DNA of 42,595 nt from a virus: the IMG/VR virus record IMGVR_UViG_3300045988_182590, one strand, 5' to 3'. Below the pieces are notes generated by a model that was not told where the DNA came from, made no database searches, and was given only the letters and a program-made list of their open reading frames with translations. A program made the position numbers and the translations under genes. Positions 6,357-42,441 of the stretch are shown in pieces. The first letter of the stretch is position 1. Every line of letters starts with the position of its first letter.

Positions 6357-6432
6357 TCAACCATTTTTTTCAGAATCAATCAGCTCTTTGATTTCATCCC
6401 GCTTCATTCTGCCGACATAAAACAAACCGTCG
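6357..6432 (-). pseudogene. Detached C-terminal coding piece of the glutaredoxin-like gene (..GLFYVGRMKRDEIKELIDSEKNG-stop)
   Basis: Joins in frame to 8231..8385 if 6427..8385 is flipped. Confidence 0.7.
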
Positions 6433-6460
6433 ATACCCGCAAATATCCGTACACCGTCAT
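6428..6460 (-). pseudogene. Detached first 11 codons of a serine invertase (MTVYGYLRVST, contains the catalytic Ser motif)
   Basis: ATG 2 nt after the methyltransferase stop. Near-identical to the N-terminus MTVYAYLRVSS at 20410. Runs out of frame into a stop after 18 codons. Confidence 0.8.
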
Positions 6461-8068: not shown

Positions 8069-8070
8069 CA

Positions 8071-8256: not shown

Positions 8257-8422
8257 TTGTTTCAAATGCAGGGAAATAAAAAGGGTGTTTCCAGACCTCG
8301 ACGTTGTTTACGCTGAAGATATGCCCGCTGAAGAACTTTCAAAGAAAAACATAACACAAGTCCCCGTTTTGCAAACTGCCGACGGACAAACAGGATTGCG
8401 ACAATCAGAAAATCGGTGTTGA
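8231..8422 (+). CDS. Glutaredoxin/NrdH-like thioredoxin-fold protein with a chimeric, non-native C-terminus
   Basis: CFKC redox motif and ..ITQVPVLQTADG. The last 11 residues are an out-of-frame reading of invertase codons. Confidence 0.6.
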   Translation: MATLISTRNCFKCREIKRVFPDLDVVYAEDMPAEELSKKNITQVPVLQTADGQTGLRQSENRC

Positions 8423-8426
8423 AGCT

Positions 8427-9269
8427 TTGGCAAAACGTCGCGGGCTTGTTGTTGATAAATGGATTGAAGACGACGGCGTGTCAGGGACGAAAGAACCCGA
8501 AAAGCGCGCGCTCGGCGGTGTTTTGAAAAAACTGAAAAAGGACGACGTGATTCTTTGTTCAGAACTGTCGCGACTCGGTCGTAAATTGTTTATGATTATG
8601 AGAATACTTGAACACGCAATGACAATCGGGGCGCATATTTTCACGGAAAAGGAAAATTACGAACTGGGCGACAACGTGCAGAGTAAAGTTCTTGCTTTCG
8701 CTTTCGGACTGGTCGCCGAATTGGAACGGGAAATGATTAGCAAGCGGACCAAAGAAGCCCTCGCCGCAAAAAAAGCAAGGGGAGAGAAACTCGGTAGAGC
8801 TTTTGGCGCGAAAAACAAAATTCACAAATACGATGGTTTCTCTTTGGAGAAGTTTGAAAAAGATTATCAAAAAACTTTTTCCCTTAAATATTGCTTGGGG
8901 AAACAAAATCTGTCCACCTCGTATTTTTACGGCGGAGGTTTCAACGAAACATTAAGAGCAGAAATAATGGAGATAATCGAGAAACACAAGAAAGATAAAC
9001 CTATTGGCATTTATTGTGTAAATACTAAACATTTTCAGAAAAACGCTCTAAAAGCGTTTGGAACAACAGAAATAAAACCGATTGTTCGACTTTCCGATTT
9101 TAAGGTTTATAAATCGATTCGCTCTCTTTGGTATGATAACTTTTCAAAAGAGCTTAATCCTACTATTTATAATCTAAAAAAACTGGCAGAATGTATACAT
9201 AACGGGGACGAGTTCCACGGAAAATTCTTCGAGTTCAAAGATTTTTATGACGGCGTTTCAATCGGATAA
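8427..9269 (+). CDS. Serine invertase (Hin/Gin/Mpi-like) lacking its first ~10 codons including the catalytic Ser; extra ~100-aa C-terminal domain
   Basis: VSGTKEPEKR..SELSRLGR..QSKVLAFAFGLVAELEREMISKRTKEALAAKKARGEKLGR, then an HTH-like LGKQNLSTSYFY. Homology extends upstream of the TTG start to ..TDKQDCDNQ (from 8382). Confidence 0.75.
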   Translation: MAKRRGLVVDKWIEDDGVSGTKEPEKRALGGVLKKLKKDDVILCSELSRLGRKLFMIMRILEHAMTIGAHIFTEKENYELGDNVQSKVLAFAFGLVAELEREMISKRTKEALAAKKARGEKLGRAFGAKNKIHKYDGFSLEKFEKDYQKTFSLKYCLGKQNLSTSYFYGGGFNETLRAEIMEIIEKHKKDKPIGIYCVNTKHFQKNALKAFGTTEIKPIVRLSDFKVYKSIRSLWYDNFSKELNPTIYNLKKLAECIHNGDEFHGKFFEFKDFYDGVSIG

Positions 9270-10289: not shown

Positions 10290-10388
10290 AAAGCTTTCCT
10301 TTCATTAAAAATGCTTACGTTTTCAGTTTATCAAAAAAAAGCGGTTTCTGCGATATTTTATTTTTTTGAAAAAAAACAAAAAAAATGC

Positions 10389-10417: not shown

Positions 10418-10466
10418 GAAAACAAGGACAGGGCGAATCGGGTGCTCTGAAAAAAGGAAAAGGAAA

Positions 10467-11017: not shown

Positions 11018-11234
11018 ACTGGACGGCATCGGCATTCAGCACAAATCTTTAGAGTTTGTTGACGGCAGACCCCAGCCTTTTGGAACAATCGCCAGAACAG
11101 CTCTGTTAAACTTTATCGTACCTGACGGAAGCCGTGTTGAATTGTCGAACTTGAAAAAAGCAATGGAAAGAATCGGCGACGGAGAAGGGGAATTTATTTT
11201 CCCTTTGTTGATAAAGAAAGGCGATGAAAAATGA
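11010..11234 (+). CDS. Continuation of the Lar-like/coiled-coil protein in another frame (T8 frameshift at 11003..11010)
   Basis: Removing one T gives ..RLRKALFFYAELDGIGIQHKS..; ALxFYA also occurs in ORF 4195. Confidence 0.45.
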   Translation, partial: YAELDGIGIQHKSLEFVDGRPQPFGTIARTALLNFIVPDGSRVELSNLKKAMERIGDGEGEFIFPLLIKKGDEK

Positions 11235-12078: not shown

Positions 12079-12314
12079 CACAAAACGAAAAAATGCGGTT
12101 TTACCGTGAAGCAATGGGTTGGTCGCGCATTAAATATGCCGAAATGTCGGGCTTCAACGAAAATTATGTTTTAATGGTCGAAAAAGGACGGCGCGCGGTT
12201 TCAAAGCCGTATTCCGAAAAAATGGAACGCGTCCTTTTAGAACATCCCGTTGAACTAACGGAGCGTGCCGCCGCTTTGTTGGAAGTTTTGAGACCGACAG
12301 AAAAGGTGTCATAA
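12075..12314 (+). CDS. XRE-type HTH regulator
   Basis: REAMGWSRIKYAEMSGFNENYVLMVEKGRR. Confidence 0.6.
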   Translation: MTQNEKMRFYREAMGWSRIKYAEMSGFNENYVLMVEKGRRAVSKPYSEKMERVLLEHPVELTERAAALLEVLRPTEKVS

Positions 12315-13081
12315 TGACGTTGTATGATTCGGCGAAAAAAGACTTTCTCAAGACGATTGATGCGATTGCGGGGCGACATACGCCCGAACAGGTCTTTACC
12401 GACTTTGTGTCAATGGCGGCGATGAGCATTTCAAACGCCGTCGATTTTAAACAGGAACGGGAAAAGAAGTACCTCGATTTGATTGGGAAGTATGAACCAG
12501 ACGAACAGGCGCGCTTTCCCGAACTGTTGGCAATCACGACAAAAGTCTTTGAAGCACAATTCGGCGATTTTCTTGGTGAATGTTTTGAAGAACTCGGCGC
12601 GTCTAATAGCAAAACGGGGCAGTTCTTCACGCCGTACAGCGTCGCCCGACTTTGCGCCAAGACGTCCTTTGATAAAGCGCGGATTGATTCGGCGATTGCG
12701 GAAAAGGGCTATGTCGGCATAAATGAACCTGCGGCGGGCGGCGGTGCAATGATTGTCGCTTTCTTGGAAACGATGAAAGAAAACGGGTATAACTTTCAGA
12801 CGCAATCGCTGACGGTGGCGCAGGATATTGATTACCGATGCGCCTATATGTGCTATGTGACGCTTTCGCTTTTGGGCGCGCCCGCTATTGTTTGCATAGG
12901 CGACACGTTGACGCTTGATATATGGGACGAATTGCACACACCGTTTTATGTTCTGAATTATCTGAAATTCAAACGGAACGGCAAGAATCCCGTTGCTGAC
13001 GAACCGACGGCGGTGGAAAATAAAACGAAATCTGTTCCCGTTTTCAAATCGGGAAATGACGGACAGTTTTCACTTTTTTGA
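12314..13081 (+). CDS. HsdM-like N6-adenine methylase-fold protein without a canonical NPPF/Y motif
   Basis: GQFFTPYSVARL (motif X), INEPAAGGGAMIV (motif I), ..GDTL.., then HTPFY where (D/N)PP(F/Y) is expected. Confidence 0.55.
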   Translation: MTLYDSAKKDFLKTIDAIAGRHTPEQVFTDFVSMAAMSISNAVDFKQEREKKYLDLIGKYEPDEQARFPELLAITTKVFEAQFGDFLGECFEELGASNSKTGQFFTPYSVARLCAKTSFDKARIDSAIAEKGYVGINEPAAGGGAMIVAFLETMKENGYNFQTQSLTVAQDIDYRCAYMCYVTLSLLGAPAIVCIGDTLTLDIWDELHTPFYVLNYLKFKRNGKNPVADEPTAVENKTKSVPVFKSGNDGQFSLF

Positions 13082-13683: not shown

Positions 13684-14055
13684 ATGAAAGAAACAACGTA
13701 TGAAATCGACGGCGTGCAGTATGAAGCCGTTGTGTCAGAAAGCTGGACTGTGAAAACAATATGCCGTTGGAATGAAGAAGCGTCCGCGATTTTAGGGGAA
13801 CTTACAAAATTCACTCGGAACGCGGTTCAATCGGCGCGTCAAAGTTCGCCGCTTGGTTTGGCTGACGTTTCTATTTTGGAGCGGTGGGATAAAGAACAGA
13901 TTGCTTTTGCCAACGCTATGGAAAATTTTGTTCGTGAGAATTTCCCGAAAGTGGCAAAACGTCTGTACAAACAAGGCGAGATTCTTTGGAATTTTTTTAT
14001 GAATTGTGCCGTCGCCGCTTTTGACGAATATCAAGACGAACAAGGTATCGGATGA
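13684..14055 (+). CDS. Hypothetical protein
   Basis: 123-aa ORF. Confidence 0.5.
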   Translation: MKETTYEIDGVQYEAVVSESWTVKTICRWNEEASAILGELTKFTRNAVQSARQSSPLGLADVSILERWDKEQIAFANAMENFVRENFPKVAKRLYKQGEILWNFFMNCAVAAFDEYQDEQGIG

Positions 14056-14070
14056 AGAAAGGAAAGAAAA

Positions 14071-14487
14071 ATGAATGACAAGTTAAAATTTCGTGTTTGG
14101 TCGCTTGATGAAAAGCGTTTTTTAGACGGAAACTTTTTCATCAATCAAAACGGTGTTGCTTATGATGATAAAATGAAACCTTTAAAAAACTGTATTATTC
14201 AAAAAAGCACGGGACGTTTCGACAAGAACGGCTATATGATTTACGCAGGTGACGTTCTTTGGGATGATTGGGAAAAGGACTTTATGCGCGTATACTGGGA
14301 CAATGGCGGATACTCGGTCGGGGTTAAAGGCGTTGTGCGGTACGATTTGAGTGAATTGTCGTCGTATGACATCGAAGTGCGTGGGAACGTTTTTGAGGGA
14401 TGGACATCGCCTTATCAAGACGTACCAGTCCGCAATGGGTTTACTCGTTATGAAAACAGAAATGGGGTAATCGATGAAAAATCTTAA
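14071..14487 (+). CDS. YopX-family protein (second copy)
   Basis: KFRVWSLDEKRF...STGRFDKNGYMIYAGDV...VRGNVFE. Confidence 0.6.
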   Translation: MNDKLKFRVWSLDEKRFLDGNFFINQNGVAYDDKMKPLKNCIIQKSTGRFDKNGYMIYAGDVLWDDWEKDFMRVYWDNGGYSVGVKGVVRYDLSELSSYDIEVRGNVFEGWTSPYQDVPVRNGFTRYENRNGVIDEKS

Positions 14488-14593
14488 ATACTTGGCTTAT
14501 CTCGTTCCGTGCTGTATGGCTTGCCAAGGAACGGCGGATGGGATTTTTTTCGCCGCGTTGACGACGATTGTGTTGTCTTTTATGTTGGATTGA
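14474..14593 (+). CDS. 39-aa hydrophobic peptide
   Basis: MKNLKYLAYLVPCCMACQGTADGIFFAALTTIVLSFMLD. Confidence 0.3.
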   Translation: MKNLKYLAYLVPCCMACQGTADGIFFAALTTIVLSFMLD

Positions 14594-14606
14594 GGGAGGT
14601 AAAAAA

Positions 14607-14750
14607 ATGAAAGATTGGGTTTATTTTATTCTAACGATAGCTTGGGCAATCTTTTGTCTATGGGGTGCAATAGCTTTGGAAAAAAACGCTGTAAATTCTG
14701 GTGTTATTTTTATGCTGTGCCTTATTGGGTTAGAAATAAAGATAAAATGA
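14607..14750 (+). CDS. 47-aa two-TM membrane protein
   Basis: gagggaggtaaaaaaATG; MKDWVYFILTIAWAIFCLWGAIALEKNAVNSGVIFMLCLIGLEIKIK. Confidence 0.5.
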   Translation: MKDWVYFILTIAWAIFCLWGAIALEKNAVNSGVIFMLCLIGLEIKIK

Positions 14751-14914
14751 CGAAAGAAGAAAAAGCTCTCGTAGAAGCGTATAAAAAGGGAATGGCGGAC
14801 GCTTGCTCTATTTTATTGGAAACGATACGGGCGAAACAAATTGAAAACGTCGCCGATTTGCTTCCCTCTTTGGCATATACGGAAAAAGAGAACGGGAAAC
14901 ACACAATACATTAA
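14747..14914 (+). CDS. Hypothetical small protein
   Basis: ATGA overlap with the upstream stop; 55 aa. Confidence 0.45.
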   Translation: MTKEEKALVEAYKKGMADACSILLETIRAKQIENVADLLPSLAYTEKENGKHTIH

Positions 14915-14987
14915 AACTTCTTGACAACGGCGGATAAAACAGATAGGATGAAAATCTCTTATTTCTCCTAAAGAAGACAAACGGAAC

Positions 14988-15022
14988 GAACGGGACGGAT
15001 GAAAATTCGCCCCGTTCTTTTT
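14988..15022. terminator. Bidirectional stem-loop between the convergent early and late blocks
   Basis: gaacgggacg/cgccccgttc stem (9/10 paired) followed by ttttt. Confidence 0.55.
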
Positions 15023-15395
15023 ATCCCTGTTTTCGGTAATAATCCCAGACAACGCCTTGCGGTTTTGTTAGGTCATCGTCAACGTGAATGAATGTTTTTC
15101 CGATTCCGATACGACAAAAGCCGACTTCCAATAATGCGGACAAAATTTTTAAACGACTCCAGCCGTCCGTACATTTAATATCAACGGCAAGACCCGCCAA
15201 GTGTGAAGACGTTTCCGAACCGCCGACTTCTCGATTATATTTTTCACACCGAAAAGCAGACGTTAAAACAAACGGGATGCCCGCAAGTTCGCGCGCCTTG
15301 TTTAATTTTTCACGAAAGTCGGGGACAAGACCGCCGCACCCGCAACAACGGCACGATTCTTCGTTTTGTGAAAAGTAATTTTTTGTCATAAGCAC
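15021..15395 (-). CDS. Endolysin, peptidase M15 (L-Ala-D-Glu / D,D-peptidase type)
   Basis: TSAFRCEKYNREVGGSETSSHLAGLAVDI and FIHVDDD zinc-ligand pattern. Confidence 0.8.
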   Translation of the reverse strand: MLMTKNYFSQNEESCRCCGCGGLVPDFREKLNKARELAGIPFVLTSAFRCEKYNREVGGSETSSHLAGLAVDIKCTDGWSRLKILSALLEVGFCRIGIGKTFIHVDDDLTKPQGVVWDYYRKQG

Positions 15396-16001
15396 CTACA
15401 TACCAACCCAGAAAATCAATCCGAAAATGAATCCGACTGCGTACTCGGCAAGATTTGTCGCGCCAGAAACAGACCAATGTTTTTGAAACAGCCAATCTTC
15501 ACGTTCTTTAAGCATCCAACAAAGCGCGTACAACGGCGATACGCTTGCGCCTATAGCGATTACCCACGGCGAAAACAACGGCTCTGTATAACCAAATAAA
15601 AGAGGAATAAAGCCCAATGCGTAAAACAGAAACATCGGACAGGTGTATCTCAGCCCCATATACAGGAAATCGTACAGAAAGCCGTATTTTCTGTTTTTAA
15701 GCAACCAGTCGCAAGGAAAGTGATACCAGCGGGCGTTATACCGCTTAATTGTCGTTTCGTCATATTGTCCGCGACCGATGTCAAAGCAAGCCCCGTGTCC
15801 ACGCGCCCAGAACTGACAGTACAAGAAAACGGCGGATAAGGCACAAATCCACCATTCGTAATGCGTGTGCCAATACATCATCCCCGTGAATGACACCAAA
15901 AAGACGATACATTGAACAGCGCGATTGTTTCCAAGCCAAGTATTCTTAAATCCCCCGCCAAACCACCTGCGCCATAGTCCATAGAACACCGCTTCTATCA
16001 T
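15396..16001 (-). CDS. Polytopic (about 5-6 TM) Trp-rich membrane protein in the lysis cassette
   Basis: 201 aa, several hydrophobic segments, abuts the endolysin start. Confidence 0.55.
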   Translation of the reverse strand: MIEAVFYGLWRRWFGGGFKNTWLGNNRAVQCIVFLVSFTGMMYWHTHYEWWICALSAVFLYCQFWARGHGACFDIGRGQYDETTIKRYNARWYHFPCDWLLKNRKYGFLYDFLYMGLRYTCPMFLFYALGFIPLLFGYTEPLFSPWVIAIGASVSPLYALCWMLKEREDWLFQKHWSVSGATNLAEYAVGFIFGLIFWVGM

Positions 16002-16249
16002 TTCTTTGTTTCCTCAATTAAAATGCGGTAGATGTCTTTAACGTCGTTCTTTGTTTCGGTCGTCTGGTGCAAAACTGTGTCGAGTTTAACCTCAATCATT
16101 GAAACCTTGCCCTCTGTTATGGCGGCGCGATGTTCCAATTCCGTAACGCGCGGGGACAACTGAATAAGTGTTTGGATAAAACAGGACACGGTGAAAATTG
16201 TCATTATCACCCAGCCCCACACTTTAAGTTTTTCGACGACGTGTTCCAT
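15998..16249 (-). CDS. Single-TM protein with a coiled-coil tail (holin/spanin-like)
   Basis: WGWVIMTIFTVSCFIQTLI followed by a helical charged tail. Confidence 0.5.
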   Translation of the reverse strand: MEHVVEKLKVWGWVIMTIFTVSCFIQTLIQLSPRVTELEHRAAITEGKVSMIEVKLDTVLHQTTETKNDVKDIYRILIEETKK

Positions 16250-16524
16250 TATTCGACCTCTTCTATAAAAACATTTACAGGAACGGCAGAACCTTTGAAA
16301 TACACCTTGTCCCCTGTGTCGGCGACAACTGAAACGTCAGAAAATGGCGCAAGTTCTTTCCCGCGAATATCGTTGTCGGGCGTTTCGGTCGTTTTCAAAT
16401 AACACAAAAAACCGATGCCAATGCTGTTTGCGTGAACCGTATATGCTTTTGTATGGTCGTAGTCTTGACCCATAATGTCAGAAAGCGGTTGCCATTCTTT
16501 AGCTTTCACGTTGTAATTTTTCAT
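16249..16524 (-). CDS. Hypothetical protein downstream of the tail fibre
   Basis: 91-aa ORF. Confidence 0.5.
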   Translation of the reverse strand: MKNYNVKAKEWQPLSDIMGQDYDHTKAYTVHANSIGIGFLCYLKTTETPDNDIRGKELAPFSDVSVVADTGDKVYFKGSAVPVNVFIEEVE

Positions 16525-16610
16525 TTTCGTTGTCCCTGTAAAAACTTTAACTACTTATAGGTTAAATCAATCCGCTCTTTTTATCAACAAGTCTTTTTAG
16601 GAAAGCAAAA

Positions 16611-16633
16611 ACAACGTTTAATCTGCCGAATTT
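16611..16633. repeat. Left copy of the 23-bp inverted repeat acaacgtttaatctgccgaattt
   Basis: Perfect reverse complement of 17217..17239. Confidence 0.95.
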
Positions 16634-16934
16634 AAATGATAGGATTCCACAAGGAAGCGGAAGCCGCGGAACGGTCGGCACGTATTTATCTGAGAGCTTG
16701 CCAAACATTAAAGAGTATGTTCCATCCTCGCTACGTTGCGATTTTGGGAATTCATCTGTCTCTGGTAGTGTTTTTGAAATAGGCGACGCATCAGGTTACA
16801 AATACACTGCTGGAACGGGTTTCGGGTCAACCTCTGGATTTGACTTAAACGTATCACGTAAATACCCTACATACAAAGACAACGCTCCAGTCCAACAATC
16901 CGCGACGGTGGTTGTTTTCTGCATCCGATACTAA
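16611..16934 (+). other. Silent alternative tail-fibre C-terminal cassette (no start codon; begins inside the inverted repeat)
   Basis: Frame open from 16566. TTFNLPNLNDRIPQGSGSRGTVGTYLSESLPN... continues the tail-collar motif and ends CIRY-stop like the expressed cassette. Confidence 0.8.
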
Positions 16935-17830
16935 TATCGGATGCAATATAAGCACGTGGCGTAGGCGGGAATAACTCTATCAACATTTGAATAAACTTGC
17001 GACGAACGAGATGCGTCGAATCCAACCGCCACATCATTCGCTTCCGAACCAGCGGGATTTCCTCTTACAACGCTGAATGTATTATAAAAAGCTCCGCTTG
17101 TTTTAAAGGATAGTGCGATTCTGTCACCAGTAAAAACGCCTGTAATGTTCGGTAAACTTCCGTTTCCTATCTCGCCAATAGGAATAGAACCAGAGTACCA
17201 CGGTGCACGATCAAGCAAATTCGGCAGATTAAACGTTGTATTTCCGTCCCCTGCACCCCACGTTGTCCCGATGACATTGAACAGACGCGCGTAAGTGATG
17301 CGGGAAATAGCCGCGCCGTTGCAAATCAGATAACCGTCGGGAGCGTCATTTGCAGGCCAAGTGATAATTATTCCTGTCGGAAGTCCCGCGTCAATAAAAG
17401 CCCAATGCACGCCGTCAAGATATTCGGGATTTGTTAAAAAGTTAAACGTGTTGTTTTCGACAAGGGAATAAACCGCCGTCGGTTTTCCGCCGACAATCGC
17501 CCACAACAAAGCCCCCTGCGGATACCCGCCGATAGCGTCTGAAACTGCTTGATTGAACGAATATGTACCGCCGTTTTGAGCGAAGAAGTTATGTTGCGAA
17601 ACGGTGTTAAAAAGACCGTTAAAGTCTTGCTGTTTCGGGGGAAGTCCCGATACCTGTGTCGGCAAAGGATTTTCAATTACGGGCATACGGGTAATGGCAG
17701 GAAAACCCTCTTGGAAAGATGCACGATTCGTCCCTGTTGCGCCGTTCGGAATAGCGTTAATGTTTTCGCTTGTCGCCTGTGCGGCAATCGGTTGAGGGAT
17801 TACGACGGGGGTTGTATTTGAAGTCGCCAT
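16931..17830 (-). CDS. Tail fibre with a phage tail-collar domain
   Basis: GIIITWPANDAPDGYLICNGAAISRITYARLFNVIGTTWGAGDGNTTFNLPNLLDR. Confidence 0.8.
   Translation of the reverse strand: MATSNTTPVVIPQPIAAQATSENINAIPNGATGTNRASFQEGFPAITRMPVIENPLPTQVSGLPPKQQDFNGLFNTVSQHNFFAQNGGTYSFNQAVSDAIGGYPQGALLWAIVGGKPTAVYSLVENNTFNFLTNPEYLDGVHWAFIDAGLPTGIIITWPANDAPDGYLICNGAAISRITYARLFNVIGTTWGAGDGNTTFNLPNLLDRAPWYSGSIPIGEIGNGSLPNITGVFTGDRIALSFKTSGAFYNTFSVVRGNPAGSEANDVAVGFDASRSSQVYSNVDRVIPAYATCLYCIRY
17217..17239. repeat. Right copy of the 23-bp inverted repeat, inside the tail-fibre gene
   Basis: aaattcggcagattaaacgttgt; encodes TTFNLPN on the minus strand. Confidence 0.95.
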
Positions 17831-18448
17831 TTATTTAACTCCTATGCTGTCTACGACAAAAACGCCGTTGTTAAAAGGTTTAAGACCGCTCCCCTCGAAA
17901 CCGAACGTTTCTTGCGGCGGAATCGGTATAATGGATGCAATTTTAACGCCAGACGGGCGCGGCAGAAAATCGTTTAATTGCAAAACGATTTCTTCTTCGG
18001 CTGTCGGAAAAAAGTCTAAAATGTACGTTATGGACATATTCAAATTGTCCTGTACATAAGACTTGTTGTCGGGATGATTGAAGAAAATTTGACGAATAAA
18101 CGTGTTTACGTTTGAAAACGTCGGCGCGTGAGAGTTTTTATACAGTTTTGCGTTCAAAAGAAATCTGTAAGACTCCGTCGGAATGGGGACAAGTTCGCCG
18201 TCGGCGTTCGTATACAAAGGACGTTCAAGATTCAGTAAAAAACTCCACAAAGTCAAACCAAATTCGTTTGCCGTCTGAATGTTCAAAACGTCATCAATCC
18301 ATCGTTCCCAAAAATCAGAAACGGCATCATCGTAAAAGTTTTGCTTCATAGCAATCAAAGCGTTAAAGTTCGGCGCGTTGTCGTACTGCCAAAGGATAAC
18401 GTTTCTTGCATTAAAAGCGATTTCTTTTGCGACATCGTAATTCTTCAT
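17831..18448 (-). CDS. Baseplate wedge protein (DUF2612 / Mu gp48-like)
   Basis: ILWQYDNAPNFNALI motif and position after the J-like gene. Confidence 0.55.
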   Translation of the reverse strand: MKNYDVAKEIAFNARNVILWQYDNAPNFNALIAMKQNFYDDAVSDFWERWIDDVLNIQTANEFGLTLWSFLLNLERPLYTNADGELVPIPTESYRFLLNAKLYKNSHAPTFSNVNTFIRQIFFNHPDNKSYVQDNLNMSITYILDFFPTAEEEIVLQLNDFLPRPSGVKIASIIPIPPQETFGFEGSGLKPFNNGVFVVDSIGVK

Positions 18449-19650
18449 TGAATCACCACCGACACATCATCAGACGTTAAAAGAGCGCATTGTTTTGAAA
18501 GGATTGTAACGCCGTTGACTGTTTGCTGTTCGCCTTTTTTACCCGCGACGACTTGAACAATTTTAATTTCGGGGATTGCTTCGGAAACGGCGGAAGCGAT
18601 TTCAAAAGTGTTTACGTTATTCCCGATTACAAGACACTCGACGTTCGGATTTTTGTTTTGCGTCCAAGCGACAACGGCATCTTTTACATCTTGATAAATG
18701 TTGTTTCCCCGATATTTGTTCAAAGAAACCGTGATTGTCGTTTGCACCTCGATATATTCGGGGCGATTGAATGTAACTTGGACGTATCGGTCGTTTATTG
18801 CATCGTATCCTAAACCTGTTTCGGATTGTCCGCTAATTGCCGTATATCCGCATCCGACGTTTTTTGCGGACGCAATGGCATTGTAAATGTCTTGAACAAG
18901 TCCGCCGTCCACAATGATACACAAAGAGTGCGGGGAAACAGAAACTCCGTCAACTTCAACCGCAGTATCATTGTAATTTTCGTAATACCAAGAAGATATA
19001 ACGCCATTTACGCCAGACAGTTTTCCTTTGATAGAATCGTTATATCCGTTCGCTAATTGTTGAGCGTACAAGATACGTTCGCGATAAGAAGAGTCGCTTT
19101 CTTTTTCATATCCGATAATGGCGGGGTCGGGATTGTTTATCGTTTCCCACCCCGAAACGCTCGAAACGATTTCCGTTAATGTTCCGACGGGACAAGGGAT
19201 TTGTCCGAGTTCAACTGACTGAAAATAAACTTCCGCCTTGCCGTTTGTGTCCAGCTGAACGGCTTTTTCACTTTCAAAAATATAACCGTCCGTTGTTTTA
19301 GCTTGAGAGCCAGCGGGAATTATAGTTCCAGCAACGCCCGCAACAGATGCAAGAGTCTTAGTCGGTTGAGCATAGTTCCGATACACCAAAACCTTTACGC
19401 CGATTGCATCCAAAAAATCGCCAGATGCCGTTCGGATGTTTTGAGAATTTGCCATTAAAGCGACAACGCGGATAACCTGTTGCCGCAATAACGTATCGTG
19501 TTCAATCAAGCGTCCCTGCGGCGTTGACGTTTCAACGGACAAATCCGCGCCGAAAATATCTTTGTATTCGTTTTCAACGTCCGTTTTTACGTCGCCCGTA
19601 TTCGGAATAACAACGCCCGTGGACGTAACATAATCGTACAAATCAGCCAT
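18445..19650 (-). CDS. Baseplate J-like protein (Mu gp47-like)
   Basis: 401 aa; lies between the W-like and wedge genes. Confidence 0.6.
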   Translation of the reverse strand: MADLYDYVTSTGVVIPNTGDVKTDVENEYKDIFGADLSVETSTPQGRLIEHDTLLRQQVIRVVALMANSQNIRTASGDFLDAIGVKVLVYRNYAQPTKTLASVAGVAGTIIPAGSQAKTTDGYIFESEKAVQLDTNGKAEVYFQSVELGQIPCPVGTLTEIVSSVSGWETINNPDPAIIGYEKESDSSYRERILYAQQLANGYNDSIKGKLSGVNGVISSWYYENYNDTAVEVDGVSVSPHSLCIIVDGGLVQDIYNAIASAKNVGCGYTAISGQSETGLGYDAINDRYVQVTFNRPEYIEVQTTITVSLNKYRGNNIYQDVKDAVVAWTQNKNPNVECLVIGNNVNTFEIASAVSEAIPEIKIVQVVAGKKGEQQTVNGVTILSKQCALLTSDDVSVVIQ

Positions 19651-19652
19651 TT

Positions 19653-19997
19653 TTAACCCGCAATCGTTGTTTCCCCGTAAACCGTCGAAACGTTCATTTC
19701 ATATTTTAAAGTGCTGTCTTCAATTCGCATTGCAAAATTCACAACAGAATTTACGCCGTCAATCGCTTCAACGTTATTCACAATTTGTTTTCTAAACAAA
19801 AAAACGTCGGGCGGCGAATTGAAAACAGAGCCAAAATAATCAACGCCAACATTCGTTGCCAACTGACATTCGCCTAAAACCGTCTGAATCCGCTGTTTTA
19901 TGACCAATGCCAAAGCGTCAATATCAGACACCAACGCCAGATTGCCTAACGCATCTAAATAAACGTCATTGTCCGAATTTGTCGCTATCGTTTTCAT
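19653..19997 (-). CDS. Baseplate W/gp25-like small protein (Mu gp46 position)
   Basis: 114 aa; position; LALVIKQRIQTVLGE pattern. Confidence 0.5.
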   Translation of the reverse strand: MKTIATNSDNDVYLDALGNLALVSDIDALALVIKQRIQTVLGECQLATNVGVDYFGSVFNSPPDVFLFRKQIVNNVEAIDGVNSVVNFAMRIEDSTLKYEMNVSTVYGETTIAG

Positions 19998-20410
19998 TGA
20001 ACGCCTTTCATTTCGTTAAATCCTATAACAATTTGAAATCTTTGTAAAGGCAAAATCACGGGACGGAAATACAACATTTTCGACTGCGGCGAATCATCAA
20101 GAACAAAGTTTTCTTTAACCGAGTAAACACGAACGCCCTTTTCAAGCAAATCTTCAAACAAGCGGCAAAGTGTGAATATACGGCGGGACAAGCAGGACAA
20201 TTCAGAAACAATAACAACATCGCCCGATTTCAAACGTCGGGCAAGGCTTCCAAGATTACGGAGTTTCGGCTCTTTTGTCCCCGAAACTTTGTCAACAATG
20301 TATTTGTCGATTTGAACATTCAAAGCAACGGCTTTGGCATCCACGCCTTGCCGCTGATTTTGTTCGTCTTGAGAAACAGATGATACCCGTAAATATGCGT
20401 AAACAGTCAT
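19994..20410 (-). CDS. Truncated serine-recombinase catalytic domain (paralogue of 8427..9269) without E-helix or HTH
   Basis: MTVYAYLRVSSVSQDEQNQ...VSGTKEPKLR...SELSCLSRR...QSKMLYF, then unrelated sequence running into the W-like start. Confidence 0.7.
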   Translation of the reverse strand: MTVYAYLRVSSVSQDEQNQRQGVDAKAVALNVQIDKYIVDKVSGTKEPKLRNLGSLARRLKSGDVVIVSELSCLSRRIFTLCRLFEDLLEKGVRVYSVKENFVLDDSPQSKMLYFRPVILPLQRFQIVIGFNEMKGVQ

Positions 20411-20413
20411 ATT

Positions 20414-20437
20414 AAAAAGGCGGGAAAAATCCCGCCC
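20414..20437 (-). terminator. Rho-independent terminator inside the late operon
   Basis: Minus strand ggcggga-tttt-tcccgcc followed by ttttt. Confidence 0.7.
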
Positions 20438-20442
20438 CTTTC

Positions 20443-20886
20443 TTATTTGGGTTCTTCAAGCGTCTTGAGCTTTTCCTCAAGTTCGTTAATCTGCGCCCGC
20501 CACCCGTCACGCTCGGAAACAACGGCATCTAAATCATACGGCAATTCTTGTCCTCTCAACGAAGCTTCGGTGCATTTCAACACTTTGTAATCCGTTTCGG
20601 AAAGTTTTGCTTTCAGCTCCCAGATTTCCTGTTGCGTCTTTTCTTTTTCGGTCGGGACGTAAGGTTCGGGTTCTTTCGGTTTTTCCTGTTCTTTGTATTC
20701 CCAAGCGTCGCCATTCCAAACGATGTCGAAACCCTCTTTTGCTTCGGGCGGTTCAATCAGCGTGCAGTCTGCGGGCAAAAGCCAAATATCCTTGCCTTGC
20801 AGTTTAGACTCCAAAGGGTCTTTGTGCATTTCTTCGGATTGTTGAAACGTCTTTTTTTCTTGGTCGTAGCGATAGCAGATAGCCAT
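20443..20886 (-). CDS. Tail-fibre assembly protein (Tfa / Mu U-like)
   Basis: LPADCTLIEPPEAKEGFDIVWNGDAWEY parallels lambda Tfa [22 protein letters not shown]; helical C-terminal half. Confidence 0.6.
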   Translation of the reverse strand: MAICYRYDQEKKTFQQSEEMHKDPLESKLQGKDIWLLPADCTLIEPPEAKEGFDIVWNGDAWEYKEQEKPKEPEPYVPTEKEKTQQEIWELKAKLSETDYKVLKCTEASLRGQELPYDLDAVVSERDGWRAQINELEEKLKTLEEPK

Positions 20887-20947
20887 TTGTGTTTCCTTTC
20901 AAAAAAATATATCTGATATTATCGGATAAACATCCGACAAGCAAGGA

Positions 20948-21643
20948 TTAAGAAACCTGCGTTAAAAGTCCATTCGTAAAAGTCAATGTTTGCTTTGTCG
21001 CGCCTGAAACATCGTGAATTTCAACAACCTGCGTTGTCAGTCCCGCAACGCCGCCCGTTGAATACGTTGCCGATTCGGTGTTTCCCGAAACAGAAACGTT
21101 TTTAGAAACAGTCGCTCCGTTCGCGTCAAAAACAAGCGTGCTTTCGCCATTCGTGAGCGTTAAATTTTCCGCCGTCATTTCAACTTTGACCGTACCGTCC
21201 GCGTTTTGAATTGAAAAGTCCGCCGTTGTATTATCAGCAGTCGAAAGATTGAACGGCAAAAAGAAACCGTCTTCAACGGCGTGAACTCGTCGGGTATTCG
21301 GGTCGGCTTCGGTGAGTGTCTTCAAAAAATTATAACAATCACGGTCGGCGAAAAAAATCAGTCCCAAATCCCCTTGTTTCAAAGAAAATGAAACCGTAAA
21401 TGCGCTTCCGAAACGGACAACGGGCATTGTGATAATCTGTCGACTTTCCGTAATGCCGTCATTCCTGATATATTTGACCGCAGGACGCACTTTAACCGTG
21501 TTAGATACCCTGTCATACTCTTGAACAATAGCGGGCATACAGACGCTTATTTGTGCGCTTATTGACCGCAACAAATCTTGAAGTGCGAAAAGTTCACTTT
21601 CTGTTGAAAGCGGATTTGCATTTACGATTGAAGTGTCAGACAT
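20948..21643 (-). CDS. Baseplate central spike (gp138-N / Mu gp45-like)
   Basis: VCMPAIVQEYDRVSNTVKVRPAVK..ITMPVV OB-fold pattern, beta-helical Thr/Ser-rich C-terminus. Confidence 0.6.
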   Translation of the reverse strand: MSDTSIVNANPLSTESELFALQDLLRSISAQISVCMPAIVQEYDRVSNTVKVRPAVKYIRNDGITESRQIITMPVVRFGSAFTVSFSLKQGDLGLIFFADRDCYNFLKTLTEADPNTRRVHAVEDGFFLPFNLSTADNTTADFSIQNADGTVKVEMTAENLTLTNGESTLVFDANGATVSKNVSVSGNTESATYSTGGVAGLTTQVVEIHDVSGATKQTLTFTNGLLTQVS

Positions 21644-22502
21644 TGCTCGGAATCCTCATACAAGAAAGGTGCGTGTAAAAAGGAACGTCGCGGGAAGTCC
21701 CCTCGTGCGTCAACATATAGACCGTGTAATCCCCATTCAAAGACGGAATTTGCGTCGATTCGATTTTTGCGATTTGCGACATCTGAAAAAACGGGTTTAG
21801 GAAAATTGAAACGTCGCATCCGTAAGTCGTCGGCTTCGGCATAAAAACCATACCGTTTTCAACATTGATTAAATACGGAACGCTCGGTCGATTCGTTTTT
21901 GCCCAGTCATCGACAATGATTTTTCCCTGTTCGTAATAAAAAATCTTGTCGTTTTTTAACATTTCATAGAGTTTCCTTTCCAAGGACGGAAGATTCCCCT
22001 TGAAATAAAACTTATCTATTCTTTTGTTAGACGTGGAATAATCCAAAACAACGGGAACTGAAAATTCAGACGCTATTTTTTTAACAAGATTTTTCGACGT
22101 TGTATTTTCAATCGATATTTCTTTTTCTTCAGAAACAAGGTCTAAGTTTGAAAACACTTCCATATTCAGCCAAATATCGGGCGGCATTGTCGGAATTGCT
22201 TTAAAAATCAATCCGTCAAAAATTACCGCCGACTCGTCGTCTGTTTCTTCAACGTATCCTGCGGTCAGGCGAATATATTTATCGTTTTGCGCCGCCAAAT
22301 ACGCCCCCTGAAACGTCGTCAGCTGGTTTATATGCTCTTGCGACAATCCACACACCGAGATTGTCCCTTGAGAAAAAACTGTCCCACGGTATTTTGTGAT
22401 TTTGAAACGAACGGCTAAATTTTCAAGCGTCAGTAAAACATCCCGCTGTTTTTTATCAGCGGACAAGCGGTAAATTTCGACAACGACTTTACGCTTTTTC
22501 AT
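21636..22502 (-). CDS. Baseplate hub protein (Mu gp44 position)
   Basis: Position and size (288 aa). Confidence 0.45.
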   Translation of the reverse strand: MKKRKVVVEIYRLSADKKQRDVLLTLENLAVRFKITKYRGTVFSQGTISVCGLSQEHINQLTTFQGAYLAAQNDKYIRLTAGYVEETDDESAVIFDGLIFKAIPTMPPDIWLNMEVFSNLDLVSEEKEISIENTTSKNLVKKIASEFSVPVVLDYSTSNKRIDKFYFKGNLPSLERKLYEMLKNDKIFYYEQGKIIVDDWAKTNRPSVPYLINVENGMVFMPKPTTYGCDVSIFLNPFFQMSQIAKIESTQIPSLNGDYTVYMLTHEGTSRDVPFYTHLSCMRIPSNV

Positions 22503-22792
22503 TCCGAATCACTCACATAAATCAAGTTCGCGCTTTCGCCCAATTTGTCATAAGACGGATAATCTTCATCATCGCAAAGCATATAAAACTGACCGCCGCG
22601 TTTCTGAAAATCATACAGAATCGGCTGATTGTTGCATACGGCAACGCTCGTACACAATGTTTCTTCATCGGCAACAATCGTAATGAAAAGCAAGTCCAGC
22701 GACGTTTGCAAAGAGATTTCATAGTTCACGCCGTCTAAAACGACAAAAAACGTTTGATTAGGCGATTTTGTTGTAGGGATGATTTGTGCCAT
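22499..22792 (-). CDS. Hypothetical tail protein
   Basis: 97-aa ORF in the tail module. Confidence 0.45.
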   Translation of the reverse strand: MAQIIPTTKSPNQTFFVVLDGVNYEISLQTSLDLLFITIVADEETLCTSVAVCNNQPILYDFQKRGGQFYMLCDDEDYPSYDKLGESANLIYVSDSE

Positions 22793-22793
22793 T

Positions 22794-23492
22794 TTAGAAT
22801 CCTATCTTTGAAAATGCGCCGCTAAATTTCTTTGAGATAACATTCCCAACTTTTTTGAAAAAAGAATCCTGCGCCGATTTGAATGTTTCAACCTGTTTTA
22901 CGACAATCACTTCTTCAAACTCAAGTGTTAATATAACACGATATAGCGTATCCACCGTGAATTTATGCGGATAGCCTGTTAAAATCATATTTTGCAAAAG
23001 TTCGGTTTTCGTTTTTATGTTAAACGGGATTGAATCTTCGTATGCGTACTTTATGCCCGTCATCACTTTTTCATACAACGGCGACGGCAGATTCCCCGAA
23101 AAAATATCTGAAAATCCTGATATGGTGGAATTCAAAACCGCTAAATAATCATCACCTACCGCGCTTGGCAACCCGATTTTTACAATCGCGCGTTTCGGCA
23201 TAATGATTTTGGAATCCGCTACAAGCCGTCCGTCTTCAACGGGCGTTGACATAATTTTAGACAGGTTTTGAACTTCAACATCCAAAATCGCGATTTTGTT
23301 AAAAGAGTATTTTGTATCAAAAGTTTTTCTCAAAACTTTATTGTTTTGTGCCAGTAGAATCGTTCTTAGCTCTACATTGTCCGTATATCCATACGACATT
23401 TCAGGCGTAACGTATGGGTAAACCTCGAAAGAGTCGTTTGAAAAGACCGCGCCTAAAACATTTTGCGCCAAGTTCAATGTTAAAAAACTCAT
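22794..23492 (-). CDS. Tail protein (Mu gp43 position)
   Basis: Position immediately after the tape measure gene. Confidence 0.4.
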   Translation of the reverse strand: MSFLTLNLAQNVLGAVFSNDSFEVYPYVTPEMSYGYTDNVELRTILLAQNNKVLRKTFDTKYSFNKIAILDVEVQNLSKIMSTPVEDGRLVADSKIIMPKRAIVKIGLPSAVGDDYLAVLNSTISGFSDIFSGNLPSPLYEKVMTGIKYAYEDSIPFNIKTKTELLQNMILTGYPHKFTVDTLYRVILTLEFEEVIVVKQVETFKSAQDSFFKKVGNVISKKFSGAFSKIGF

Positions 23493-39534: not shown

Positions 39535-40644
39535 ATGGAAAAAAGTAAACAAATTGTTATAAAAAACAATAACGCCGCTATTTTGCCCGCGCCGTTATCA
39601 AGCGGGTTTATTCCCGCCGTCGCCGTTAAACTCGGATATGACGAAACAGAACTGACAAAACGCGCCGTTGAATTTTACAATTTTTGCCGTGTAAAAGATT
39701 TGTCGGCAAAAACGGGAAGCAAGCTTATGGACTGCACGCCCGAATCGACGCAAAAGGCGTTTTTGCAGGTCGCCGCTTGGAATATCCCGCTTGATTCTCG
39801 TGATTTTTGTTATTTTTACAACAACAACGGGAATATGACGGCGGAACCGTCGTACAAGGGCTTGCTGTACGTCGCGAGTCAAAACGGATTGGAAGTGGAC
39901 GCGGGACTTGTTTTTGACGGAGATTCGTTTGAAATGACCGAATCCGCCGCGGGCGACTCGTTCGTTTTGAAACGTGGGAATCCGTTCGGGCGTAAGAAAA
40001 TCGTCGGCTTTTACGCTTTCGTCAAATGCGCCCGCTATTCCCCGAAAATTTACACATTTTCGTTTGAGGAGTTGGAAGCGGCAAAACAGGCAAGCGTTCG
40101 GAAAATGGGCGGAAAAGAATCGCCCGCTTGGAAATACTTTCCAAACGATATGTTTTTAAAAGTTGGGTTGAAAAAAGCCCTCAAAATTTCAATGGCAAAA
40201 ATCGAAATCCGTTCTGAAATTCGGGCGATGTTTGACGATGAAGTCCCCGAAGCCGAGGACACCGTTCAAGTGCAAAGTGAAAAAACCGCTTTATTTGCGT
40301 CTACAACGCCAGTTGAAGCATTAACCGCTACACCCGTACCCGAAACGCCGTCAATCGAAACAGACGGGCAGGAAAATGGGCAAAGCGTCGATGTTTCAGA
40401 TGAAGAAATGGAAATGTCGGAAGAAAATGCAGAACCGCCCGCCGTCATTTTGGAATTGTCCGCTTTTATGGACAAGCTGGAAGCGTATGCAGATGAGTCG
40501 TTGTCTTTGGACGATGCCGATACTCTGAAAAAGATGAAGTACGTTAATGACCTGCGCGACCGCTTGGAAACTGCGGGCTATGCGGACGCGTCAAAAAATG
40601 TTTCCGCCGCTTTTAGCAAAAAACTGCGGAAAGGGGTGAAATAA
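39535..40644 (+). CDS. recT: RecT-family single-strand annealing protein with an acidic C-terminal tail
   Basis: AEPSYKGLLYVASQNGLEVDAGLVFDGDSFE...GFYAFVK...WKYFPNDMFLKVGLKKALK. Confidence 0.75.
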   Translation: MEKSKQIVIKNNNAAILPAPLSSGFIPAVAVKLGYDETELTKRAVEFYNFCRVKDLSAKTGSKLMDCTPESTQKAFLQVAAWNIPLDSRDFCYFYNNNGNMTAEPSYKGLLYVASQNGLEVDAGLVFDGDSFEMTESAAGDSFVLKRGNPFGRKKIVGFYAFVKCARYSPKIYTFSFEELEAAKQASVRKMGGKESPAWKYFPNDMFLKVGLKKALKISMAKIEIRSEIRAMFDDEVPEAEDTVQVQSEKTALFASTTPVEALTATPVPETPSIETDGQENGQSVDVSDEEMEMSEENAEPPAVILELSAFMDKLEAYADESLSLDDADTLKKMKYVNDLRDRLETAGYADASKNVSAAFSKKLRKGVK

Positions 40645-40997
40645 TGGAAAAGAAAAAAGCCCCCGCCGTCAATATCGACAAGGTGCGCGTGCCGAAAGAA
40701 CAGGATGCCCGCGTCAAATTGACCGATGAAGAACGTGAGAACATCAAAACGATGTGGTGCAACGGCGCGTCGATTAAAGGATTGGCTAAGCTGTTCAATG
40801 TTTCCCGCCGCACAATCCAGTTTATTCTCTTCCCGTCGCGGAAAGAAAAAATGTTGGAAGCGCGAAAGGCGCGTTTTTGGAAAAATCATTGGTATAAACG
40901 CCGCAAGCACAATATCGCGATGCGCCGTTGTCGAAACAGAAAAAGAACGATGCTTGAACACGGTGTAATTTCAGAGGAAGAACAAAAAAATGCGTGA
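40644..40997 (+). CDS. HTH DNA-binding protein
   Basis: ASIKGLAKLFNVSRRTIQFIL helix-turn-helix; basic C-terminus. Confidence 0.5.
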   Translation: MEKKKAPAVNIDKVRVPKEQDARVKLTDEERENIKTMWCNGASIKGLAKLFNVSRRTIQFILFPSRKEKMLEARKARFWKNHWYKRRKHNIAMRRCRNRKRTMLEHGVISEEEQKNA

Positions 40998-42441
40998 AGA
41001 AATGGAAAAAGAACTGGATTCGTTATATCCGCGTTTGCGTATCGGGCAGAAATGCCCGTGCGGAAAACCCGCCGAACACGTCCACCATTTAATCGGGCGC
41101 AATAATCAGCTGTTGCGTTGGGACGTTAAAAACCTGTTGCCGCTGTGCGCCGAATGCCACGCCGCCATTCACGACAAAGGAATGTGGAATCACGGCTTGG
41201 ATTTGGTCGATGCCGAAACGCGCGCCTATTTGGAAGCCCGCAAAAATGTTTTGCTCAAAGACTATCTGCGTGAAAAAGGACAATCGTTTGAAGACTTCGC
41301 CGCCGAAAAACGAAAAGAGATTTTGGAAAACGTCGGGCGGATGCGAAACATTGTTCAAAACTCTGACGAATGGCTGTCCGAAAAACAAGGGACAATCGGC
41401 GGGTCGGAAATCGCCGCCGTCATCAAATCCTTTGTCCCGAAAGAACGCTTAATGGAAATAATGGGGGAACGCGCCGCCACTTCGTTTTTAAACGAACCGC
41501 TGTACACGACGGGCTATCTTGTTTTTCACAAAATCAAAAACGGATACCGACAGCCGCCGATTCCCGACGAATTGAACGTTTACGGACACGCCGCCGAATC
41601 TTACGTCGAATGGGCGTTGCGCGACAATGCGGATTTTGACGTGCGCCGTTGCCAAGACTTCATTAAACGCCCCGATATAAGCCCCTTTGCGTCCTGTTCG
41701 CCCGACGGATATTGTGTGTCAAAAAAAGAACAGTATAACGACGTGAACGGTCGCCCGATTACAGAGCGGAATCCTATTTGGGAGTGCAAAACCATCCAGC
41801 ATTTCAAAGCAATCAAAGAAGACGCTTTGAAGCGCGGGCTTCAATGGTCATATTTGTTTCAACTACAGAATAACGCAATGATTTGTGGGCGTGATTGCGC
41901 GGTCATCTCGTCAATGCTGTTGCCCTTGGAAAAGGACACGACATTTAATCGCGGCGTGATTGCGTCTTTGATTGAACAGAAACGCTTTGAAGAAGTGCAG
42001 GAACGTTTTACGCCCGAAGTTTACACGTCGGTTTACGGGCTTATCCCCGAAATGCAAGCGGCAATTAAGGAAGCGTTGCGGAAATTTGAACAGGCGATTG
42101 CCGAAAACAAGCCCCCCGAAATCAACAAAGAAACGCTGTCTTTGATGAAAAAGGACTTCGCGTGCTATCAAGAAGTCGAAAAGTTTAACGCGTCGAGCGC
42201 GGTGATGCTGTCTTCACAAGACCAAATCGACGGACAGGATGCACACGACTGGTTTAACGATGCGCTGTTTTTCGCCGAATCAATCCGCTTGGATGATGAC
42301 CGCAACGAAAAAAACAAATTGCTTATCAAAAAATTTATGATGGACAACAACGCGTCCGAAATCTACACGCTGGACGGCGGAAAAGCGAAATTGTCCGCAA
42401 ACGGTCGCTTGTCTTTGCAACCGCTTAAAAACGAGGGATAA
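40990..42441 (+). CDS. HNH endonuclease domain fused to a YqaJ/lambda-Exo-like recombination exonuclease
   Basis: N-terminus CPCGKPAEHVHHLIGRNN...LLPLCAECHAAIHD; then SDEWLSEKQGTIGGSEIAAVI, CSPDGY, WECKT (PD-(D/E)xK). Confidence 0.75.
   Translation: MREEMEKELDSLYPRLRIGQKCPCGKPAEHVHHLIGRNNQLLRWDVKNLLPLCAECHAAIHDKGMWNHGLDLVDAETRAYLEARKNVLLKDYLREKGQSFEDFAAEKRKEILENVGRMRNIVQNSDEWLSEKQGTIGGSEIAAVIKSFVPKERLMEIMGERAATSFLNEPLYTTGYLVFHKIKNGYRQPPIPDELNVYGHAAESYVEWALRDNADFDVRRCQDFIKRPDISPFASCSPDGYCVSKKEQYNDVNGRPITERNPIWECKTIQHFKAIKEDALKRGLQWSYLFQLQNNAMICGRDCAVISSMLLPLEKDTTFNRGVIASLIEQKRFEEVQERFTPEVYTSVYGLIPEMQAAIKEALRKFEQAIAENKPPEINKETLSLMKKDFACYQEVEKFNASSAVMLSSQDQIDGQDAHDWFNDALFFAESIRLDDDRNEKNKLLIKKFMMDNNASEIYTLDGGKAKLSANGRLSLQPLKNEG

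Follow-up and report, generated by a model that had tools for sequence, protein, structure and literature searches.

In the IMG/VR virus record IMGVR_UViG_3300045988_182590 (42,595 nucleotides, referred to in its full length as the window), a tail-fibre gene runs into a segment that is bracketed by two inverted copies of one short sequence. This arrangement raises the question whether the segment is turned over to give the fibre another C-terminus, which enzyme would perform the inversion, and whether the switch is still active in this phage. The locus is very probably a remnant of a serine-invertase cassette system for changing the receptor-binding tip of the tail fibre, of which it would be the last unit still intact. 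In such a system the site in the fibre gene would recombine with an inverted site, the intervening DNA would flip and the other cassette would become joined in frame to the constant part of the fibre.

Organization of the inverted repeat and the fibre cassettes

The sequence ACAACGTTTAATCTGCCGAATTT at positions 16611-16633 (site A) is the exact reverse complement of positions 17217-17239 (site B) and forms with it a 23-bp inverted repeat. No further copy of the 23 nt was present in the window at three or fewer mismatches, none being expected from 100 dinucleotide-preserving shuffles, and the similarity of the two arms reaches 41 nt at 83% (16600-16640 and 17210-17250). Site B lies within the open reading frame (ORF) of the fibre, 16931..17830 on the minus strand, and encodes TTFNLPN. 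Site A opens a plus-strand frame of 107 codons, which has stops upstream, no start codon and the same phase as the fibre; it reads TTFNLPN...VVFCIRY-stop, with the stop at 16932-16934. The expressed cassette c1 and the silent cassette c2 lie tail to tail with a 4-nt overlap at their stop codons (16931-16934) and share the phase, so that inversion would exchange the C-terminus of the fibre in frame. Besides the two cassette frames, 16634-17216 holds just short overlapping mechanical ORFs (42-56 amino acids); as the segment contains no other gene-sized ORF, no chaperone would be co-inverted. An earlier note on this DNA had described the perfect repeat, the position of its right copy in the fibre gene, the start-less frame in the same phase, the in-frame exchange and the lack of a chaperone gene in the segment, and it was right in each of these respects. 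The palindrome formed by the convergent cassette ends (16919-16946) is predicted to fold as an RNA hairpin of -17.3 kcal/mol (z = -3.95), and this junction layout is kept in 8 related cassette pairs. A role as terminator is doubtful, because no U-tract follows the palindrome.

The fibre protein of 299 amino acids showed a match to Pfam Collar at residues 153-210 (E=3.4e-21) and also matched the tail fibre / tail collar families of PHROG. A profile of its homologues matched the receptor-binding region of the T4 gp12 short tail fibre in the PDB (1pdi, 1ocy, 9cuy and 8kec), and the fibre shows the layout of T4 gp12, with the receptor-binding region after the Collar domain. The AlphaFold2 model of the fibre monomer was of low quality (predicted local distance difference test, pLDDT, 67.6; predicted template modelling score, pTM, 0.30), and Foldseek found nothing below E=0.5 for it in the PDB. 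The final CIRY strand might conceivably return to complete the collar fold. The search with the fibre protein yielded 1598 homologues, many of which are about 95% identical over the first 205 residues and unrelated beyond. One homologue is labelled as coming from a metagenome-assembled genome (MAG) of Clostridium sp.; with this label as a tentative pointer, the host is probably a Firmicute and the phage family probably infects gut Clostridia.

Cassette families and orientations in related phages

The window was aligned to five nearly full-length relatives (L001, L044, L045, L046 and L047). The closest viral contig, L001 (IMGVR_UViG_3300045988_180615, 42.8 kb), contained four sites and four cassettes, two on each side of a block consisting of the wedge gene, Baseplate_J, DUF2612 and the constant part of the fibre. 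Further assemblies carried two (L002), three (L033), four (L022) or six cassettes (L034). Every cassette starts with TFN(L/V)PN and nearly all end with CI(R/K)Y-stop, the exceptions being the expressed cassette of L044 (YIRY) and one cassette of L022 (...AATRV). The cassettes are about 85-125 codons long, and the variable middle between the TTFNLPN start and the CI(R/K)Y stop is just 30-50% identical from one cassette to another. Scans of viral contigs with Baseplate J and with the recombinase rec1 recovered the L001 contig alone, and megablast of positions 14000-22000 against the phage collection gave no match.

The alternate orientation, for which the earlier note had proposed to search relatives, was found in L045 between the same flanks, which are 95% identical to those of the window. 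In L045 the side of the constant part (5774-8621) and the lysis-side flank (9174-11202) align plus/minus to the window, and the intervening stretch 8588-9109 matches window positions 16607-17152 in plus/plus orientation. A cassette of the c2 family is there fused to the constant part, i.e. expressed, and the c1 orthologue (...PNITGVFTGDRIALRFTTSGAFYNT...VPAYAVCKYCIRY) is silent and adjoins the same flank. P0004 likewise joins a cassette of this family to the constant part. Alternative, inverted C-termini are therefore joined in frame to one constant N-terminal part, both orientations being found between the window and L045.

Since c2 has neither a promoter nor a start codon and the local invertase is dead, the left cassette might be regarded as a decaying duplicate that was never used, with the repeat left over from a past duplication or inversion. 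This is very improbable. Between c2 and its L035 orthologue (88% protein identity) 45 substitutions were counted and no indel or stop, with a synonymous divergence (dS) of 0.42 and a ratio of nonsynonymous to synonymous divergence (dN/dS) of 0.21, so the silent cassette is, on this comparison, under purifying selection and not decayed. A disruption of this frame in all relatives, which the earlier note had named as a possible refutation, does not hold for L035. The frame of 107 codons is open, the same cassette family is expressed in relatives, and conservation of the site persists where the left arm does not code for protein. That the arrangement is an assembly artefact, i.e. a chimera at a short repeat, is hardly credible: the window presumably derives from a metagenomic assembly and assemblers can mis-join at inverted repeats, but the tail-to-tail layout with overlapping stops recurs across nine or more independent assemblies of differing origin, and an independently called fibre (P0131) is 99.7% identical to the expressed one (1 substitution in 299 residues).

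Two other arrangements were observed among these contigs. L033 (10000-13420) and L034 (10000-14700) represent a more distant lineage with sites of the form ACATTCAATTTACCTAATTTT and a resolvase of 262 amino acids inside the array; a wedge-like gene of 114 amino acids stands alone between two sites, and these blocks are rearranged between both contigs. L047 has no left cassette bank; at 5740-5775 the lysis-side flank meets the leader of the wedge gene via 10 nt of unrelated sequence (GACGGCTTAT), and the baseplate/fibre block is fixed opposite to the other tail genes.

A second invertible segment carrying baseplate genes

Positions 17217-20079, comprising the constant part of the fibre gene and three baseplate genes, aligned at 95-96% identity in all five relatives. 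In L001, L046 and L047 this 2.86-kb segment runs against both flanks, in L044 and L045 with them, indicating that the segment is itself invertible. Related phages have two to six cassettes, placed in banks to either side of this segment. A promoter-like match, TTTACA-17-TAGGAT, lies in the conserved leader on the minus strand (20048-20020); the match is weak and the whole scan was not above chance. Such a promoter could permit expression of the baseplate/fibre operon in either orientation.

At the far end of this segment the window holds the remnant of a third site (site C), which agrees with the site B flank at 21 of its 23 bases. Overlapping blastn alignments meet here, at codon ~112 of the recombinase gene rec2: 17219-20079 is reversed relative to L001, and 20067-23800 is forward. 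The two-site unit of the earlier note is real; overlooked in the note were its origin from a larger multi-site system, the degenerate third site at 20057-20079 and the adjacent invertible segment. The coordinates of all features are given in Table 1.

Table 1. Positions of the cassettes, sites, baseplate genes and recombinase genes in the window
Feature	Position	Strand	Description
rec1 fragment	6425..6460	-	First 12 codons (MTVYGYLRVSTV), inverted relative to the remainder, next to the MT-A70 methylase gene
rec1 remainder	8385..9269	+	294 codons; Mpi-like catalytic domain
Secondary site P	16583..16593	+	In the F flank; ATC-AA-CAAGTC
Site A	16611..16633	+	Heads the silent cassette; left flank of type F, intergenic, lysis-gene side
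Cassette c2 (silent fibre C-terminus)	16634..16934	+	~100 codons, ends CIRY-stop, in frame with site A
Palindrome, 12 bp, perfect	16919..16946	.	Formed by both convergent CIRY-stop ends
Cassette c1 (expressed fibre C-terminus)	16931..17216	-	Last ~95 residues of the 299-residue fibre
Site B	17217..17239	-	Within the fibre gene; encodes TTFNLPN, end of the Collar domain
Second invertible segment	17240..20056	-	~2.86 kb; comprises the four genes or gene parts listed next
Constant part of the fibre gene	17240..17830	-	Ends in a site (B)
DUF2612/Wedge1	17831..18448	-	Domain match
Baseplate_J	18445..19650	-	Domain match
Baseplate wedge / sheath-initiator gene	19653..19997	-	Domain match
Site C remnant	20057..20079	+	Left half of the Wf site (wedge-gene side), joined to antisense rec2
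rec2 fragment	20080..20410	-	N-terminal 110 codons of a serine invertase; E-helix and helix-turn-helix absent
Candidate constant tail-fibre assembly protein	20443..20886	-	147 amino acids; outside the invertible DNA

Recombination site and crossover point

Alignment of 26 distinct sites revealed conservation over about 30 bp, and a site of this kind stands at the head of every cassette. The left arm is A-rich, conserved also where it is non-coding, and is followed by AA-CGTTTAAT(C/G)TGCCGAA (hyphens set off the proposed exchange dinucleotide, as in the junctions below). Five left flanks recur: an intergenic one on the lysis side (F), the constant fibre part (K), the region preceding the wedge gene (Wf), the 3′ terminus of rec2 (R) and an additional one (N). 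Site A together with its type F flank is also present in L001, L044, L046 and L035. Even in a single genome the sites are not always alike (those of L001 differ at several positions), and ACC replaces ACG in the sites of L022, L002 and L021.

The point of exchange could be placed from aberrant junctions. Site C of the window reads GGAAATAC-AA-CATTTTCGAC, where intact rec2 reads ...ATATC-AG-CATTTTCGAC. In L044 (GCA_018376725.1, a MAG labelled Clostridium sp.; 4700-5030) the 3′ third of rec2 has been turned round; its limits are a look-alike site at codon ~137 and the gene's terminal site, and the junctions read ...GGGAAGCG-TT-CGCTTTTT... and ...GATATGCC-AA-CGTTTAAT. The rec2 gene of L035 passes at its 3′ end precisely into the secondary site P, GTAAAACG-AA-CAAGTCTTTTTAGG (CAAGTC), and homology to the window begins at 16586. 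These junctions are independent of one another, and all of them place the exchange at the dinucleotide 5′ of C(G/A)(T/A/C)T, so that exchange at AA is the probable course. Most genomes have AA here, and all four L022 sites have GA; being uniform among partner sites and asymmetric, the dinucleotide behaves as a crossover core should.

The same junctions bear on the possibility that the segment inverts by homologous recombination across the 23-41-bp repeats, mediated by the phage RecT / YqaJ-exonuclease or by host RecA. The window does encode RecT (39535..40644) and a YqaJ-like exonuclease (40990..42441), and the repeat is perfect over 23 bp. The aberrant junctions lie, however, at look-alikes that share only AAC(G/A), and they use one fixed dinucleotide, which is the signature of a site-specific enzyme and not of a dependence on homology length. 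Sites in one genome differ at several positions (L001), and in relatives that have an invertase gene it adjoins the arrays, with its stop codon inside a site. Homologous recombination is therefore very improbable as the cause.

The adjacent recombinase gene rec2

The gene next to site C, rec2, would be the dedicated invertase. The ORF called here (19994..20410) continues past the homology into the antisense of the wedge-gene leader; the window copy covers only positions 1-112 of the 145 of Pfam Resolvase, and homology to intact invertases ends at codon ~112. Intact orthologues of 199-208 amino acids adjoin the array in L022, L035, L045 and L047, the genomes in which a small serine recombinase stands complete beside invertible DNA. 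They have YLRVSS near the N-terminus, a Resolvase catalytic domain and a C-terminal helix-turn-helix (HTH). The L047 protein matched the PHROG 'DNA invertase' family (E=1.6e-43). The best named family for L022 rec2 was Mpi, NF009949 (E=7.6e-59, 199 bits, under the cut-off of 272 bits), and the alignments of rec2 and rec1 to this model are full length, 3-197 of 199 residues. Hin, Gin, Cin and Pin were not the nearest relatives, the Mpi model being far better, and the best solved structure was Gin (4m6f) with just E=7e-12. An enzyme like Mpi and not like Gin agrees with the remark of the earlier note that the repeat does not resemble gix/hix sites; the site is indeed not a typical one of that kind.

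In L047 and L001 the last codons of rec2 (...RKTNV-stop) enter a site, the TAA stop being the TAA of CGTTTAAT. Disruption of rec2 was seen in three independent ways, i.e. by the deletion in the window, by the internal inversion in L044 and by a frameshift in L001. The L044 inversion yields an ORF of 138 amino acids, the length of which matches that of the window ORF by coincidence. In L001 an ORF of 297 amino acids (6930-7823, minus strand) joins the invertase to a silent cassette. A true fusion protein was considered and rejected, since there is a frameshift in the HTH region and the other frame reads ...GVSRRKIAKRCKVCEKTLRKWLRKTNV-stop, as in L047, with the normal end ...RKWLRKTNV-stop; the frameshift may be a genuine mutation or may stem from an error in sequencing a homopolymer. 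Also rejected was the idea that the left flank of site A encodes the missing C-terminal part of rec2 (its minus strand reads ...VVFAFLKRL, like LAFAFGL in rec1), as the same flank is intergenic beside the lysis genes in L001, L044 and L046.

The product of 20443..20886 showed a weak match to PHROG 105, 'tail fiber assembly' (E=1.3e-7, residues 4-66). Its orthologues carry faint Caudo_TAP_N marks and always stand beside rec2 in the relatives, and it may be a constant chaperone.

Several points weigh against the interpretation as a serine-invertase switch. The L045 segment has 74-84% nucleotide identity to that of the window, compared with 95% in the flanks, and its expressed cassette has just 50% protein identity to c2. 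All the evidence for inversion comes from comparison between genomes. The perfect identity of sites A and B over 23 bp could just reflect coding constraint and recent ancestry, and the site has weak dyad symmetry, its best axis, on the exchange dinucleotide, scoring 5.4 of 12. None of the window ORFs scanned encodes a complete recombinase, and rec2 is assigned as the putative enzyme from its adjacency to the array and its family alone. The serine-invertase cassette system nevertheless remains the strongly preferred explanation.

History of the locus and possible activity in trans

The simplest history would start from an L045-like ancestor and comprise two events, inversion of the segment between sites A and B and one deletion. 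The deletion would have taken place between the Wf site upstream of the wedge gene and a directly oriented look-alike at rec2 codon ~112, and would have taken with it two cassettes and one site as well as the E-helix and HTH of rec2. It was presumably produced by the invertase itself.

The second serine recombinase, rec1, is split in the window, as the earlier note had stated of both recombinase genes: rec2 is homologous only to codon ~112, and the first codons of rec1 are inverted relative to the remainder, which covers Pfam Resolvase positions 11-144. Rebuilt rec1 (305 amino acids) is 96% identical to an intact protein of 304 amino acids (P0011) and scored 216 bits with NF009949, again under the cut-off of 272 bits. 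The inverted block with the rec1 start includes the upstream MT-A70 block (6427-7626); in L048, MT-A70 and rec1 are contiguous. A simple inversion of 6427-8383 is doubtful as the origin of the split, only a 6-bp inverted repeat (CCGTCG/CGACGG) being found at the breakpoints, and a weak forward match of 7943-8043 in L036 hints that the rearrangement exceeds one simple inversion. The heptamer CTGCCGA of the fibre sites adjoins both rec1 breakpoints (ATTCTGCCGACAT and AAACTGCCGACGG; 6400-6440 and 8360-8395); this may be chance, with about five copies expected in the window. A 58-nt inverted repeat (7819-7876 and 10363-10420), 72% complementary and AT-rich, encloses 2.5 kb including the main part of rec1 and may be a pair of similar promoter regions. 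Two DNA methyltransferases are encoded in the phage (MT-A70, 6463-7017, minus strand; N6_Mtase, 12314-13081, plus strand), in addition to the RecT / YqaJ-exonuclease pair (39535-42441, plus strand).

With the local rec2 truncated and rec1 split, the switch is probably frozen here, failing an invertase that acts in trans. The earlier note had left undecided which enzyme flips the segment or whether it is frozen; we lean towards the latter, rec2 having been destroyed, by this account, in a secondary-site deletion. It is rather unlikely, if worth consideration, that the segment still flips by a serine invertase acting in trans, be it rec1 after reversal of its split, a host enzyme like Mpi or the rec2 of a co-resident relative. 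Sites A and B are both whole and free of mismatches, the c2 frame is unbroken and under constraint, the Mpi-like catalytic domain of rec1 is 44% identical to that of rec2, thousands of homologues of about 200 amino acids occur in bacterial contigs, and Mpi has been described as acting globally in trans (PMC6109161). However, intact rec1 orthologues occur in phages with a fibre of 596 amino acids and no called cassette genes beside it, which makes rec1 unlikely as a dedicated fibre invertase. Its C-terminal domain of about 140 amino acids is unrelated to that of rec2, so that its site specificity probably differs. The split of rec1, with so short a repeat at its breakpoints, and the lack of a complete recombinase gene among the ORFs scanned likewise speak against activity in trans, and a frozen switch remains the favoured state.

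A wider reading can be offered tentatively, at less than an even chance. On the 2.9-kb flip-segment the constant half of the fibre gene would travel with three essential baseplate genes under a promoter of their own, as a 'swinging arm' that docks to banks on either side, an architecture not described for Mu, P1 or p15B, and the invertase gene, which ends in a site, would recurrently be destroyed through its own look-alike sites. The rec1 split may be a fourth case of such self-destruction.

Comparison with known inversion systems

The earlier note had likened the locus to the Mu G and P1 C segments, and the likeness holds: as with Mu G/Gin and P1 C/Cin, two opposed fibre C-termini lie between inverted sites inside the fibre ORF. 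In Mu and P1 a chaperone gene (U/U′) is co-inverted with each variable part, and the invertase works with Fis and an enhancer. The present segment differs from these in that it contains no chaperone, the candidate assembly protein being constant and outside the segment, and in that the local invertase is truncated; it does not belong to the Mu/P1 subtype in which each variable part carries its chaperone.

Mpi, the 'master' serine DNA invertase of Bacteroides fragilis (NF009949), represents the best-scoring named family for rec2 and rec1, both of which score below its cut-off. Mpi flips promoters at many dispersed loci, whereas the sites described here lie in the coding sequence of one phage gene. 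We take the promoter-flanking repeat of Mpi to be ARACGTWCGT, which has AAACGTT in common with several of the present sites; no confirmation of this consensus was found in the papers searched.

Closer in architecture is the multiple-inversion system Min of p15B (Sandmeier, Iida & Arber 1992, as cited in PMC6109161 and bioRxiv 10.64898/2026.02.14.705889). As far as these accounts describe it, p15B likewise has a serine invertase beside the array, several crossover sites in the tail-fibre gene and multiple alternative C-termini that inversions join to one constant N-terminal part. In contrast to p15B, the invertase of the present system is nearer to Mpi than to Hin, Gin, Cin or Min, the site sequence is another, the cassettes are short (about 100 codons) and lack a chaperone gene, an invertible segment between two banks carries the constant part along with three baseplate genes, and the host is probably a Firmicute.

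The Rin shufflon of Bifidobacterium prophages, with a tyrosine recombinase and 11-bp sites (PMC6109161), is also a gut-phage multi-cassette system for the C-terminus of a receptor-binding protein, and the evidence for it likewise came from rearrangements between genomes and between virion and prophage. Its receptor-binding protein is of a different family. The recombinases at the present loci are of the serine type (Pfam Resolvase), which separates them from Rin and from the R64 shufflon with Rci; no tyrosine recombinase or tyrosine-type integrase turned up among the window ORFs scanned. Nor did a reverse transcriptase turn up among these ORFs or a template repeat come to notice that would suggest a diversity-generating retroelement, at which no search was aimed. 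A tRNA scan of the window found none.

In the parts of the screen of Milman, Yelin & Kishony (2023) that we consulted, tail fiber proteins are among the enriched targets of programmed inversion, and DUF2612 proteins, phage tail protein I and Mpi-family serine recombinases are among the enriched neighbours (PMC9881135). This is the gene set found here; the present architecture, the site and the flipping of a baseplate/constant segment are not described in those parts (PMC9881135). The principle itself is already known from Mu Gin, P1 Cin and especially p15B Min (PMC6109161). New as variants are the Mpi-like enzyme with its site, the chaperone-free cassette of about 100 codons with the crossover in the Collar motif, the banks on both sides of a flip-segment with essential baseplate genes, and the repeated inactivation of the invertase via secondary sites.

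Significance for the phage family

Inversion of the receptor-binding tip is a classic form of host-range hedging in phages and has been documented mainly in enterobacterial ones (Mu, P1 and p15B). The compact cassette without a chaperone and the defined 30-bp site could be of help in host-range engineering. For annotation, 'hypothetical' ORFs of 100 amino acids beside fibre genes and apparent invertase-fibre fusions are to be read as silent cassettes. The repeated loss of the invertase through secondary sites exemplifies how switches become fixed, and if the wider reading of a docking flip-segment is true, such self-disruption events would lock a lineage into one host-range state.

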